From: a virus
Lineage: Duplodnaviria; Heunggongvirae; Uroviricota; Caudoviricetes
DNA: 55,921 nucleotides
IMG/VR virus record: IMGVR_UViG_2541047806_000003
Coordinates: 1 to 55,921 of that record
Direction: 5' to 3' (one strand)
Part shown: positions 30,126-36,233 of the stretch, piece by piece
Numbering within the stretch: position 1 is the first letter of the stretch
Layout of the letters: each line of letters starts with the position of its first letter
Program-made: the position numbers and the translations under genes
The notes under the pieces: model-generated
The model's input: only the letters and a program-made list of their open reading frames with translations
Told to the model about the DNA's origin: nothing
Databases searched by the model: none

Positions 30126-30302
30126 TTACGGCTTTCTATATATCAGGCCGTTATCAAGCAACATTTGCATATGCCGCCGATCCATGTCGCTTGATTCCCA
30201 ATGTGGATCGTCATCAGGTCTTATCATCACCTTATTACCTTTAAGTAAATAGACGATGTTAAATACCTTATGCAAATAGATACCATCTTCGATCTCGTTC
30301 AT
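30126..30302 (-). CDS. Hypothetical small protein
   Basis: 58 aa (MNEIEDGIYLHKVF...), ATGA overlap with upstream ORF. Confidence 0.35.
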   Translation of the reverse strand: MNEIEDGIYLHKVFNIVYLLKGNKVMIRPDDDPHWESSDMDRRHMQMLLDNGLIYRKP

Positions 30303-30478
30303 AGGTCGCTAACCCTCACCAGTTCACCAGCATCAAGAAATATTTTAATTGTTTCTCGCGTCGTCTTAATGATTGGCGCTACCCACTCACCACCGCCAAC
30401 GCGGATGCGAATATCATCACCTTCTACGCGGTAAAACAGCCCGTCTACTACTGTTGCGTACACCCCATCTTCAATCAT
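30299..30478 (-). CDS. Hypothetical small protein
   Basis: 59 aa (MIEDGVYATVVDGLFYRVEGDD...). Confidence 0.35.
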   Translation of the reverse strand: MIEDGVYATVVDGLFYRVEGDDIRIRVGGGEWVAPIIKTTRETIKIFLDAGELVRVSDL

Positions 30479-30762
30479 TTCTTGCGCTCCTTAATAGCTC
30501 GATTGATCTGCCCTGCCGTAGCGTCGAAGAAAGCGATAAACACAGTCACAGGCCAAAAAGGAATCTCAAGGCCGCCAGGTTCAGCTCCGCTAAACTTAAT
30601 AAAACAAGACATCAGGATAGCGCCAGCGATATAAAGCAAAACAATCACAGCTATAAGGCATTCAATCATCATCGCCCTCGTCTTCATGTTCAGCCAGGAA
30701 ATCATCAACGGCACGGTAAGTAACTGGAGGGATGTATTCGAAATCATCAGAATCAAGATCAA
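30475..30762 (-). CDS. Hypothetical small membrane protein; start uncertain
   Basis: ORF-track 95 aa, hydrophobic; overlaps neighbour so true start is probably internal. Confidence 0.35.
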   Translation of the reverse strand: MILILMISNTSLQLLTVPLMISWLNMKTRAMMIECLIAVIVLLYIAGAILMSCFIKFSGAEPGGLEIPFWPVTVFIAFFDATAGQINRAIKERKK

Positions 30763-30913
30763 GCGTCCTGCTGTCGCCGTCGTCGTCCATCGTATTCATC
30801 CCTAACTCACCGAAAGGGCCGTACCCAATGTGGCCCAGGTATTCGCAACCAATCGTAAACCAAGGGTATTCGCCTTTACACCGGATCTTGTAAGGTTTAT
30901 TTGATGCGCTCAA
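30662..30913 (-). CDS. Hypothetical acidic protein
   Basis: 83 aa, Asp-rich C-terminus. Confidence 0.4.
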   Translation of the reverse strand: MSASNKPYKIRCKGEYPWFTIGCEYLGHIGYGPFGELGMNTMDDDGDSRTLDLDSDDFEYIPPVTYRAVDDFLAEHEDEGDDD

Positions 30914-31220
30914 TTTCCACCCCTCCGTTTTCGCCTTCAGTCACTTTGTATTCTGCCGCCAGTTCAGCGCCAAGCAATTCCACTTCCATATTAGCGATAC
31001 CCTGGAACATCAGATAGGCAAAAACTAGGCTTTTAATTCTATCCGGGTCTTCAAGATGGTCTGCATTAAAAGGCGGTTCCGATACGTGGAAGCATTTAAC
31101 ATGCGCATCGTCTTCAGTGGCTACACGGAAACATGCACTAGGTTGCCCGGCAAATTGTCCTAATCTTTCTTCGTTCGGTAAAGTGCCACGGAAAACTTTA
31201 ACGCTGATAAATTTAGACAT
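30897..31220 (-). CDS. Hypothetical protein
   Basis: 107 aa ORF, coupled to neighbours. Confidence 0.45.
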   Translation of the reverse strand: MSKFISVKVFRGTLPNEERLGQFAGQPSACFRVATEDDAHVKCFHVSEPPFNADHLEDPDRIKSLVFAYLMFQGIANMEVELLGAELAAEYKVTEGENGGVEIERIK

Positions 31221-31223
31221 TGT

Positions 31224-31478
31224 CTATTCTCCTTCGTAAAAAATAGCTACCAGTTCAGGATTGTTTAATGGGTTAGGGCAAGAATAAAAACCACTTCGCA
31301 ATAACCCCCTAAGCGCCTTTATTTTTCTGTGCACCGGGATTGACTCGCTTAAATAGAAATCATCTTTCCTTTTGTCATAAGGTAGCTCGTAAAACCTACC
31401 ATAATTTACGAATTGAACGACGCGGCAAAACTCACCGTCAGCCTTACTGTTGCCGCGCCATATTTTGATTATTTCCAT
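31224..31478 (-). CDS. Hypothetical protein
   Basis: 84 aa ORF. Confidence 0.45.
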   Translation of the reverse strand: MEIIKIWRGNSKADGEFCRVVQFVNYGRFYELPYDKRKDDFYLSESIPVHRKIKALRGLLRSGFYSCPNPLNNPELVAIFYEGE

Positions 31479-31481
31479 AAA

Positions 31482-31811
31482 TTAAAACTCCGCACCAGGT
31501 AAGCTACGCGCTTCGTTAATATCGTCCTTTTCAATCCATTTCTTAGCGTGCATATCCATTACGGATATAGCGGCAACTGGCGCATAATTATTTACTGAGT
31601 GGATGTGAAAAAGTTGATTTCTGGTAAAAATCATATCGTCATCGGTTATATATAACCAGTCGCCGCGTTTGCCAACAACAATGTGAGATCTGCCTAAGCT
31701 GTCTTTAAATTCATAATTACAGAAAACATCATCGTTAGGAACTTCAACAAAACAGCAAGCAATAAATTTAGCGCTTTTCATGATTACACCCTTCTGATTT
31801 GATGGGGCCAT
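31482..31811 (-). CDS. Hypothetical protein
   Basis: 109 aa ORF (start possibly MKSAKF). Confidence 0.45.
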   Translation of the reverse strand: MAPSNQKGVIMKSAKFIACCFVEVPNDDVFCNYEFKDSLGRSHIVVGKRGDWLYITDDDMIFTRNQLFHIHSVNNYAPVAAISVMDMHAKKWIEKDDINEARSLPGAEF

Positions 31812-31824
31812 CCGGCCCCGTGTT

Positions 31825-34233: not shown

Positions 34234-34508
34234 TCTTCTGTCCCCCAGCGCTCAATGCTGATTAAAAAGTCCCGGATAGCGTGGCGCTCGTAGCGCGTTG
34301 GTTTACGCTTGCGGTATATTTTGAAATCGAACCATTCTTTTTCCTGCTCGAAATCCAGATCGTAAGCAAGCGCCTCAATGTATCCGCATTCGTGATACTG
34401 GTATGCAACGCCAGCACGAACAAAAAAGCGGGTTTTATCCCGCTTGTGCTCATAGATACGCATATTTACCCCGTTATGCAGTTGTGTAGCTGTCAACCAG
34501 CTTTTCAT
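34230..34508 (-). CDS. Hypothetical protein
   Basis: 92 aa ORF. Confidence 0.4.
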   Translation of the reverse strand: MKSWLTATQLHNGVNMRIYEHKRDKTRFFVRAGVAYQYHECGYIEALAYDLDFEQEKEWFDFKIYRKRKPTRYERHAIRDFLISIERWGTEE

Positions 34509-34704
34509 CTTTCATTCTGGCAAGCTGGTCGATGTTCATCGTGTAGCCGCCATCGGAGAAAAGCAATTCCGCCGCTGCGCGACGAAAAGCAATATCATCG
34601 TGGTTGCGTGTCCATGTAGCGATCACAACGCGTTTCCCGTTAGTGGCGAACATAGACAATTCATTATCAACTACGTCGATAGCCTGCCAGATTTTTAGCT
34701 CCAT
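34474..34704 (-). CDS. Hypothetical protein
   Basis: 76 aa ORF. Confidence 0.4.
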   Translation of the reverse strand: MELKIWQAIDVVDNELSMFATNGKRVVIATWTRNHDDIAFRRAAAELLFSDGGYTMNIDQLARMKDEKLVDSYTTA

Positions 34705-35060
34705 GATTTATCCCCGTAGATCTTGAATAGTTCACACGCTTCCTGATTTTCAAATATATTCATATGCAGGTCACGCAGGCGGCGCATTGTGCGGAATCGC
34801 GGCCTGAACTCCTGGCTACGTTTAATATATTTGCCGCCAATTGAATAAATATGCCCGTATGCGTACCATCTGTTACCTACCCATATGTCATATTCTTTGC
34901 CTTCGTAATTAAATTTTATCGTTAGCTCGCCGACTTCAACTATTAACCCTTTATCAATGATGTCATTAAGCATTTCGTCCCATTCTTTGAGGAATGGTTG
35001 TTGATAAAAACCAAAAAGCGTATTTGCAGCATGGCAAAGATAATCAATGATTATTTGCAT
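34695..35060 (-). CDS. Hypothetical protein
   Basis: 121 aa ORF. Confidence 0.45.
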   Translation of the reverse strand: MQIIIDYLCHAANTLFGFYQQPFLKEWDEMLNDIIDKGLIVEVGELTIKFNYEGKEYDIWVGNRWYAYGHIYSIGGKYIKRSQEFRPRFRTMRRLRDLHMNIFENQEACELFKIYGDKSWS

Positions 35061-35064
35061 ATTA

Positions 35065-35265
35065 TCACCACATCATATAGTAAACGTTATCATCTGCTAA
35101 TTCGTCTGCGTCTCTTTGACAGTCGATTGTCGCATCATCTTCGTGCCATTCTTTAGCAAATAAACGCGCCCATTTACGACGCTCACGTTTATTGTGCTGC
35201 AGGTCACTAAAAACCATTAAAGCCTTGTCGTAAGCTCTTACCAGGCGTTTCATTCTACTTTTCAT
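35065..35265 (-). CDS. Hypothetical protein
   Basis: 66 aa ORF. Confidence 0.4.
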   Translation of the reverse strand: MKSRMKRLVRAYDKALMVFSDLQHNKRERRKWARLFAKEWHEDDATIDCQRDADELADDNVYYMMW

Positions 35266-35471
35266 TTTTCACCCTTCCTTAATTCCTTAATTTCAATATT
35301 GCGTAACCGGACGTCGCACGGCGTTTCAGATTTACCAGTAAGCGCCAGCGTCAGGTTTTCAGGTGTCGTGTAAAGAATTATCTCTTTACCAGTGCTAAAT
35401 TTAATTTCTATGCGGATCTCGTTTTCATCACCGCACAATACGCGGCTAATTGACAGGCCAGCTTTTTTCAT
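35262..35471 (-). CDS. Hypothetical protein
   Basis: 69 aa ORF. Confidence 0.4.
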   Translation of the reverse strand: MKKAGLSISRVLCGDENEIRIEIKFSTGKEIILYTTPENLTLALTGKSETPCDVRLRNIEIKELRKGEK

Positions 35472-35484
35472 TGCTCAACAAACC

Positions 35485-35784
35485 TTAAAATCTGTATTGC
35501 CAGTAAATATCACACTTTATTGCGAATACCTTCACCGGATCAGGGCCGAATAGTGGATGTTGAATCAACTTGATTTCGTACCCCATGTAAGGCAATACGA
35601 TAATCCGGTCTTTCTCATCATCCGATGGATAACCCCATTTAATGATTAATCTTGTGTACTCCCGCCCCTCCAGGCGTTTACGCCAGTATTCATTGTAAAG
35701 CCGGTATTCTTCCACCTTCTTTCCCGCCCGGATGGCGTGGAAGTATTCACCTTTTAAATTCAAATGTAAGTGTTTATTTGCCAT
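35485..35784 (-). CDS. Hypothetical protein
   Basis: 99 aa ORF. Confidence 0.45.
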   Translation of the reverse strand: MANKHLHLNLKGEYFHAIRAGKKVEEYRLYNEYWRKRLEGREYTRLIIKWGYPSDDEKDRIIVLPYMGYEIKLIQHPLFGPDPVKVFAIKCDIYWQYRF

Positions 35785-36043
35785 CGCTATGATCCTGTAA
35801 ACAGTCGTTATAGCCTTCGATGTATCCGGTTAATCCTGTGTTACTTACTGACCAATCAGCCGAACGGCGCTTGATGGCCTTGTCCATAGTCATCTCGTCA
35901 CCTGGCCCGCCTGGCTCGATGTATTTTCTTAAATCCCTTACTATCCTCGCCCTTAATTGTTGCGTATCACTGTACACACGCGCCGTTAATGTCAGATTAT
36001 TAACCAGCTTTGCGAATAGATGTTCTTTTAATTTAGGCTTCAT
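35774..36043 (-). CDS. Hypothetical protein
   Basis: 89 aa ORF. Confidence 0.45.
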   Translation of the reverse strand: MKPKLKEHLFAKLVNNLTLTARVYSDTQQLRARIVRDLRKYIEPGGPGDEMTMDKAIKRRSADWSVSNTGLTGYIEGYNDCLQDHSDGK

Positions 36044-36233
36044 CCTTCACCTCGCGACGATAGATTTCTACTGGCTTAACCGGAATAGCGTTAAAATCCC
36101 CTTCATCCAGTGCGGCAATAAACGTTAGCGCCAACCGTGCTTCAACACCGCTTAAATACTTGCACCATGCATCACCGTTATAATCTTCAAAAAGAATAAT
36201 CACTTTTTTTCATGTTTATCTCTTGTTGTTTCA

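Follow-up and report, generated by a model that had tools for sequence, protein, structure and literature searches.

The stretch of DNA analysed here (IMG/VR record IMGVR_UViG_2541047806_000003, 55,921 nucleotides, referred to as the window) carries a block of small open reading frames (ORFs) at positions 30126–36233, between a gene for a late antiterminator of the lambda Q type and the lysis cassette. We read this block, with a probability of roughly 0.6, as a flexible array of small genes that is transcribed with the early-right operon and whose products are small modulator proteins. It was already known that phages of this group, named mEpimmI, have flexible regions, and that hypervariable arrays of small unknown genes are usual in temperate phages. 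Three points appear to be new: the placement of the array, from its sequence context, between Q and a candidate late promoter; the presence in it of a narrow protein family of E. coli phages with six invariant residues; and the predicted structural kinship of this family both with Gp54 of phage Bas11 and with small proteins from a wide range of other phage genes.

Phage identity and gene content of the block

Genome similarity and synteny identify the window as a temperate coliphage of the mEpimmI (mEp021-like) group. These are Nus-dependent temperate siphoviruses from human faeces, according to the paper describing them (Negrete-Mendez et al. 2025, PMC11893012). The 6.1-kb interval matches mEp044, mEp010, MagusPhagus, mEp554 and mEp013 with 86–91% DNA identity over 43–71% of its length, and prophages matching it with up to 94% DNA identity were found in 35 of 5,426 complete E. 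coli genomes. Taken together with its flanks, the block is 84–94% identical at the DNA level to mEp044, mEp010, mEp554, mEp013 and the 35 prophages. All comparisons among phages used a set of 13 relatives; where we refer to 14 phages, these are the 13 plus the window.

The genes on either side of the block are well conserved: the Q protein is 84–100% identical to its counterparts in the 13 relatives and the holin 92–100% identical. Q matches the Q-lambda chains of PDB entries 7UBM and 4MO1 (phmmer E 1e-39). Genes for NinF, NinG and RusA lie directly upstream of Q and the block, and the lysozyme and Rz-like genes come after the holin. We note that Q in the window is 240 residues long, as against 207 residues for lambda Q; the extra segment (approximately residues 123–147) falls within a region matching the DnaJ CXXCXGXG zinc-finger domain (E 9.7e-6).

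The ORF listing gives 25 ORFs between Q and the holin, all of them on the minus strand. A preliminary description of this DNA had counted approximately 27; its account of a dense, co-oriented and tightly packed run of ORFs of 46–121 residues holds. The size range applies after the correction of five starts (marked in Table 1), which were moved inward on the basis of PHROG alignments and the annotation of the relatives. Thirteen of the junctions are overlaps, nine are gaps of 2–13 nt and the remaining three measure 30, 43 and 98 nt, making 22 of the 25 no longer than 13 nt. Shine-Dalgarno-like sequences precede most of the starts, the G+C content is not distinct from that of the neighbouring regions, and six of the ORFs encode acidic products, with isoelectric points (pI) of 4.1–4.5.

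For each ORF the pooled ratio of nonsynonymous to synonymous change (pN/pS) was obtained by comparison with its orthologues in the 13 relatives; the sequence pairs are not independent of each other, and the signal is uniform. The values range from 0.09 to 0.46 for the 24 ORFs that have diverged orthologues; by comparison, Q has 0.17 and the holin 0.11. PHROG families are matched by 22 of the 25 ORFs, nearly all over their full length, and apart from one secondary match these families are labelled as being of unknown function. Because pN/pS is uniformly low, we take the block to be real, coding and beyond chance, and on this measure its ORFs are genuine protein-coding genes under purifying selection. 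The contrary view, that these frames are open merely by chance and the DNA is non-coding or in decay, could appeal to their small size, to the broken frame of the first ORF in the window, and to the truncation of some copies of the paralogous family (described below) in relatives. It is, however, incompatible with pN/pS values that resemble those of Q and the holin, with full-length PHROG matches, with the Shine-Dalgarno-like sequences and with the strong strand bias. We regard it as already refuted by this conservation pattern; the preliminary description had allowed for the ORFs being non-conserved, and they prove to be conserved.

The frame of the first ORF is interrupted by a run of seven A residues (36210–36204), after which a GTG at 36203 restarts an ORF of 56 residues. 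Near-identical alleles with six A residues encode an intact 66-residue protein, and those with five are also broken. The run in the window may reflect an error in sequencing a homopolymer, or else the tract is genuinely prone to slippage.

A flexible region around a five-gene core

The distance from Q to the holin is only 2,006 bp in mEp021, which has eight genes there, and 3.3–7.1 kb in the other 12 relatives; counted in genes, the array varies between 8 and about 30. Of the 25 genes in the window, 17 are missing from mEp021. Five genes are common to all 13 relatives, the minimal block of mEp021 included: 34474, 34230, 33725, 33472 and 33258 (ORFs are named here by their lower coordinate). 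The remainder is mosaic, with adjacent genes in one relative showing anything from 38% to 100% protein identity, and no DNA-level repeats mark the boundaries of the cassettes. Because of the 2.0–7.1 kb size range and the mosaic content across the 13 relatives, the interval is, by comparative analysis, the main flexible (accessory) region of this phage group; the earlier view of it as a cargo or accessory block, with genes gained and lost mosaically, is thereby upheld. The array varies by cassette-like gain, loss and replacement around the conserved five-gene core.

PMC11893012 describes approximately half of mEpimmI genes as 'flexible', and places them mainly in variable regions. Those regions concern the same group and the same locus, with NinG, RusA and Q on one flank and holin, lysozyme and Rz on the other. 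We found in the sections of the paper that were searched no description of the block, its families, its transcriptional position or its function, and the deposited records of the mEp relatives give the block genes throughout as hypothetical proteins.

The existence of a core raises the question of whether the block, or at least these five genes, could serve phage housekeeping, as accessories of replication, recombination, RNA metabolism or virion assembly. Retention in 13 of 13 relatives, even in the minimal block of mEp021, is what such a role would predict, and ORF 33472 is the orthologue (94% identity) of mEp021_41, which was deposited as 'virion structural protein'; mass-spectrometry detail behind that label was not found in PMC11893012 or its supplements. 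A further ORF resembles ASCH proteins, and its counterparts in relatives carry an RNA-binding annotation; the nin region (NinF, NinG and RusA) runs on into the block; and a probable distant relative of one block family, ORF 12122, is located within the tail operon. The greater part of the block is nevertheless dispensable, as the content of mEp021 makes plain, and none of its ORFs has a match among known families for replication, recombination or virion structure. We therefore consider housekeeping a rather unlikely explanation, noting that housekeeping for the five-gene core and modulators for the variable part may be compatible.

Transcription of the block

In all 14 phages the stop codon of Q and the ATG with which the first block ORF begins overlap (as TAATG or TGATG), and there is consequently no intergenic room at this point for a promoter, a Q-loading site or a terminator. 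At the other end of the block, before the holin, lies a candidate Q-dependent late promoter with the layout TTGTAG-17-TAAAAT-7-AACAAT, which can be compared with TTGACT-17-TAAATT-6-AACGAT in lambda pR'. The AACGAT of lambda pR' is a sigma-70-dependent pause element, used for Q loading. In the candidate, the −10 hexamer TAAAAT occupies 30095–30090 and the −10-like pause element AACAAT occupies 30082–30077. An intrinsic terminator follows approximately 25–50 nt downstream of the candidate start site, immediately upstream of the ribosome-binding site of the holin, and the leader RNA is predicted to fold with −25 kcal/mol (z −3.8). Records of relatives label this hairpin a terminator: TERM_5 in mEp021, T8/T9/T10 in mEp044/mEp010/mEp013. 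A terminator t5 is listed as experimentally demonstrated in PMC11893012, and is probably the terminator upstream of the holin, judging by the match in numbering.

The approximately 95 bp directly upstream of the holin are near-invariant in all 14 phages, even where the last block gene differs, and form the most conserved non-coding stretch. By analogy, we propose that this element is a candidate for the late promoter throughout the phage group; it is apparently not described in PMC11893012.

Since a pR'-like combination of promoter, pause element and terminator occurs only downstream of the block, the block most likely forms the distal part of the early-right operon and does not belong to the late one. 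Antitermination by the N-like Gp17 at nutR2, upstream of ninF-ninG-rusA-Q, is reported in PMC11893012. Early-right transcription antiterminated by Gp17 would continue through Q into the array, which would thus represent a nin-like region extended past Q. Its genes would be expressed in the delayed-early phase of lytic growth, and would be neither Q-dependent late cargo nor genes with lysogen promoters of their own.

The comparison with lambda is instructive in both directions. The lambda nin region, which runs from ren to ninI and occupies the part of the pR operon between P and Q, also consists of small delayed-early ORFs. The block resembles it in being co-oriented, overlapping and mostly dispensable, in consisting of coupled small ORFs without promoters of their own, in being contiguous with NinF, NinG and RusA homologues in the early-right operon, and in probably being read by N-type antiterminated polymerase. 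It differs in lying downstream of Q instead of between the replication genes and Q, in its length of about 6 kb, and in being far more variable; furthermore, no block gene is homologous to a named nin gene, and no block ORF matches a Nin family in Pfam.

The toxin genes of Shiga toxin (Stx) phages come after pR', the Q-dependent late promoter, and after its terminator. The preliminary description had placed the block in this classic stx position, and the two regions do share a location between Q and the holin and a variable content. The Stx-phage order is, however, Q - pR' - tR' - tRNAs - stxAB - S, whereas the pR'-like module of the window (30036–30118, as inferred from its sequence) lies downstream of the block, Q abuts the first ORF directly, and the block has no tRNA genes, toxin genes or long intergenic regions; the reading as a classic stx position is accordingly not supported. 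Rfam and tRNA scans of the window gave no matches, and Pfam scans detected no toxin-like genes among the block ORFs. It could still be argued that the block is late-expressed cargo, with products made only late in lytic growth from a Q-dependent promoter at or within the end of Q: the block does lie between Q and the holin, Q acts in trans, and a promoter embedded in the Q coding sequence is conceivable. This is made unlikely by the stop/ATG overlap in all 14 phages, by the position of the only pR'-like module, which is downstream of the block in the most conserved non-coding stretch, and by the lack of tRNA and toxin-like genes.

The genes might alternatively be morons, expressed in the lysogen from their own promoters as defence, superinfection-exclusion or fitness factors, as is often the case for genes in hypervariable prophage regions. 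In keeping with this, Block ORF 6 weakly matches phrog_14894, which is labelled 'membrane protein, moron', weak internal hairpin/T-run sites are present (in the gap at 32255–32352), and terminators are predicted inside the blocks of relatives. However, the genes are co-oriented and overlapping and have no individual promoter/terminator pairs, sigma-70-like sites in the region number 12 compared with 22 in shuffled sequence, the G+C content is like that of the neighbouring regions, and none of 26 proteins has a match in PADLOC. The known exclusion functions of the group (the repressor and Lpp lipoproteins) map elsewhere, according to PMC11893012. Expression as lysogen morons thus seems to us quite improbable, and placement in the early-right operon is preferred.

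Two hairpins were observed in the larger intergenic gaps. One, at 31802–31821, is G+C-rich (GGGGCC/GGCCCC) and has a T-run on the plus strand only; the other, in the 98-nt gap at 32255–32352, is weak and A+T-rich, with a T-run on the minus strand. They might serve in the processing or stabilisation of RNA, or act as leaky terminators within the block.

A four-member paralogous family

Four consecutive block ORFs (33034, 32822, 32573 and 32353) are linked to each other by pairwise blastp (E 3e-7 to 5e-5, in a database of 26 sequences) and by hhalign (P 1e-6 to 3e-28). Three of them match phrog_31142 (32822, E 1.6e-40; 33034, E 3.4e-9; 32573, E 1.8e-5); ORF 32353 has no PHROG match, and belongs to the family on the evidence of a hidden Markov model (HMM) and hhalign. 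An alignment of 23 diverse members has invariant columns at C8, S11, F16, Y22, D39 and W45, in agreement with the D-x-G-x-x-W motif pointed out in the preliminary description. That description had conceded that its family alignment might lack statistical support; for the four core members the support is there, ORF 12122 is a probable distant relative, and ORF 33725, which had been included as a looser member, is not a relative, as it has no HMM match at E < 10 and is absent from the top hhalign pairs. Among the relatives, the family HMM detects one to four adjacent copies in 12 of 13 and none in mEp021; some of the copies are truncated.

The family is narrow. Among 5.8 billion proteins, a word-indexed search recovered 67 family clusters, all from E. 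coli or its phages, and an exhaustive HMMER search of 1.84 billion representatives returned approximately 20 true small members, few of them beyond those of the earlier search. The HMMER search also returned long proteins with 5–10 matching stretches, which correspond to beta-propeller blades (Reg_prop, BNR, GH43 and NHL). These were rejected as homologues because they share only a hairpin motif, D-x-x-G-x-I-W-V-F, at profile positions 26–63, and the likeness is treated as motif convergence. Against PDB sequences the family profile gave chance-level matches only, such as AcrIC4 at E 0.89.

ORFs 30126 and 30299 constitute, on alignment, a second duplicated family, which the preliminary description did not contain.

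ORF 12122, in the tail operon, is related to the four-member family by blastp (E 3.5e-4, in a tiny database), by HMM (E 0.007–0.03) and by profile–profile comparison (P 1.3e-4, probability 54%, over 55 columns in which C, F, Y and D-G-W are aligned). These values are borderline, and we regard it as a probable distant relative. Its homologues at 37–50% identity include bas01_0046, Sf12 gp21 and inoa_70, a 'putative minor capsid protein'. Its PHROG family is found among the early accessory genes in virulent Drexlerviridae and Vequintavirus, whereas in the window the ORF lies inside the tail operon, after gpM. Comparison of ORF 12122 with PDB sequences gave chance-level matches only, and its AlphaFold2 model, from a shallow alignment, had a predicted local distance difference test score (pLDDT) of 63, too poor for a fold search.

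Predicted fold and comparison with Gp54

AlphaFold2, run for ORF 32822 with the 23-sequence alignment, predicts an all-beta structure of six strands, with a mean pLDDT of 87.8 and a predicted template modelling score of 0.75. For the family, the prediction is a rare six-stranded beta-barrel, that of Gp54 from phage Bas11 (PDB 9AXB; Pfam PF25180, 'Phage antiviral trigger protein Gp54'; Zhang et al. 2024, PMC11578894). Gp54 is a non-essential 66-residue protein encoded in the early region, which binds to the antitoxin domain of CapRelSJ46, a toxin-antitoxin defence protein, and activates it; close homologues of Gp54 still fail to activate (PMC11578894).

For comparison, the Gp54 sequence was taken from phage Bas11 (bas11_0054, MZ501085.1) and a family alignment was built for it (PF25180). 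Since no sequence or profile similarity to Gp54 is present, the relationship suggested by the model is at the level of fold only. The conserved residues differ, those of the block family being C, S, F, Y, D and W, and the hosts of the two genes differ also: Gp54 comes from a virulent phage of the Drexlerviridae, the block family from temperate mEpimmI phages. Gp54 was rejected by profile–profile comparison as a sequence relative of the 12122 family as well.

In BFVD, Foldseek finds the same predicted fold in many uncharacterised proteins of 63–135 residues from enterobacterial phages (TM-score 0.6–0.84), and several of these phages carry more than one such protein. One match is a 78-residue 'putative minor capsid protein', which agrees in name and length with the 12122-type gene of Vequintavirus. 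Judged by predicted structure, Gp54-like barrels occur in many small proteins of Drexlerviridae, Vequintavirus and T4-like phages. Some of the BFVD matches are proteins of 127–268 residues, much longer than a single domain.

Possible functions of the products

On the basis of probable early expression, dispensability and rapid cassette turnover, the acidic or tiny products and the predicted Gp54-like fold, we infer, with less confidence, that these genes encode small, non-essential proteins which bind other proteins and so modulate the physiology or the immunity of the host. The tandem diverged barrel copies would supply several binding specificities. A possible role in anti-defence or host takeover draws only circumstantial support from the predicted fold match to Gp54 and from the placement in the early operon.

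A number of results weigh against the reading of the block as an early-expressed array of modulators, some concerning the products and others the transcription. None of the 25 block proteins passes the Pfam cut-off; PADLOC finds no defence-system match among the block ORFs and ORF 12122; and when the 21 non-family ORFs were concatenated and compared by phmmer with all PDB sequences, none gave a match at E ≤ 1. Orthologues of the paralogous family are under purifying, not visibly diversifying, selection. A Foldseek search of the family model against the PDB gave nothing significant, PF25180 matches neither the four paralogues nor other family members, and hhalign gives Gp54 a probability of 0.2% of being a sequence relative of the block family; the kinship depends on a fold match from a predicted model. 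The function of Gp54 itself is unknown, and the analogy therefore says little about mechanism. As to transcription, the assignment of the promoter draws on analogy with lambda and on conservation; the near-invariance begins just upstream of the −10 hexamer, the −35 region varying between subgroups; and the composite promoter pattern, which has one match in the window, has a chance match in 32 of 100 shuffles and is thus not significant when taken alone. It is also possible that N-antiterminated or Q-modified polymerase reaches the block from an unrecognised upstream promoter.

The preliminary description had stated that no product is recognisable, and this is nearly right: the only hint is a match of Block ORF 3 to the Pfam ASCH family at E 0.01, below the cut-off, the RefSeq label in relatives being ASCH/RNA-binding.

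A more specific proposal, which we offer tentatively and consider unlikely, is that the barrel copies (0–4 per phage, plus the 12122-type protein) make up a fast-turnover repertoire of binders, each directed at a different immune sensor or essential host protein.

Feature coordinates and other genes in the tail operon

The features discussed above are collected in Table 1.

Table 1. Positions of the block genes, their flanking genes and associated elements in the window.
Feature	Position	Strand	Remarks
Q-lambda-type late antiterminator gene	36234–36956	minus	Pfam Antiterm PF03589, E 4.7e-30; left block boundary
Block ORF 1, phrog_35000	36033–36234	minus	ATG at 36234–36232 overlaps Q stop codon
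Block ORF 2, 89 residues, phrog_29262	35774–36043	minus	pN/pS 0.27
Block ORF 3, 99 residues, ASCH-like, phrog_625	35485–35784	minus	pN/pS 0.17
Block ORF 4, 69 residues, phrog_1222	35262–35471	minus	
Block ORF 5, 66 residues, phrog_8758	35065–35265	minus	
Block ORF 6, 121 residues, phrog_16975	34695–35060	minus	pN/pS 0.13
ORF 34474	34474–34704	minus	this and the next five genes, pN/pS 0.09–0.30
ORF 34230	34230–34463	minus	start corrected
ORF 33955	33955–34233	minus	
ORF 33725	33725–33952	minus	
ORF 33472	33472–33720	minus	start corrected
ORF 33258	33258–33509	minus	
ORF 33034	33034–33258	minus	tandem paralogous family
ORF 32822	32822–33037	minus	tandem paralogous family
ORF 32573	32573–32812	minus	tandem paralogous family
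ORF 32353	32353–32580	minus	tandem paralogous family
ORF 31976	31976–32254	minus	small ORF
ORF 31825	31825–31965	minus	small ORF; start corrected
ORF 31482	31482–31781	minus	small ORF; start corrected
ORF 31224	31224–31478	minus	small ORF
ORF 30897	30897–31220	minus	small ORF
ORF 30662	30662–30913	minus	very acidic, pI 4.1
ORF 30475, 65 residues	30475–30672	minus	hydrophobic, likely membrane protein; start corrected
ORF 30299, phrog_15318	30299–30478	minus	second paralogous pair, with ORF 30126; hhalign P 6e-19
ORF 30126, phrog_15318	30126–30302	minus	second paralogous pair, with ORF 30299
Candidate Q-dependent late promoter	30070–30118	minus	
Intrinsic terminator	30036–30062	minus	7-bp G+C stem and T-run
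HP1-family holin gene, first of lysis cassette	29819–30019	minus	PF16080, E 1.9e-15; right block boundary
ORF 12122, 65 residues, phrog_3249	12122–12319	minus	overlaps stop of gpM-like gene (PF05939), upstream of gpL (PF05100)

Several other genes are inserted in the tail operon that contains ORF 12122. A ParE-like toxin gene (13013–13267, plus strand; PF24732, E 9e-12) is preceded by a 51-residue ORF (12840–12995, plus strand) that is probably its antitoxin, and this pair lies between the tape-measure and gpM-like genes, opposite to them in orientation. An ORF with a KilAC/ANT domain (11717–11965, plus strand; PF03374, E 7e-7) stands, together with two unknown ORFs (11071–11965 in all, plus strand), between ORF 12122 and gpL. 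Upstream of the tape-measure gene there is a VasI-like ORF (15824–16483, plus strand; PF11319, E 1.2e-15).

Significance

Phages of the mEpimmI group are reportedly as prevalent in human faecal isolates as the lambdoid phages, and approximately half of their genes are uncharacterised. If the array belongs to the early operon and not to the late one, as we think most likely, then models of early host takeover or counter-defence would be more apt for it than models of lysogenic conversion or toxin release. The predicted fold link would provide the first structural relatives of the orphan Gp54 outside its narrow family, and members of the four-copy family can be put forward as testable candidates when small phage proteins are sought that interact with immune sensors of bacteria. 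Should the tentative idea of a binder repertoire be true, the family and its look-alikes in BFVD would make up a superfamily, defined at the level of fold and widespread in enterobacterial phages, of proteins acting in anti-defence or as decoys, the sensing of Bas11 Gp54 by CapRelSJ46 would be the host's counter-move, and the early array downstream of Q would be a dedicated counter-defence island of a prevalent group of gut coliphages.

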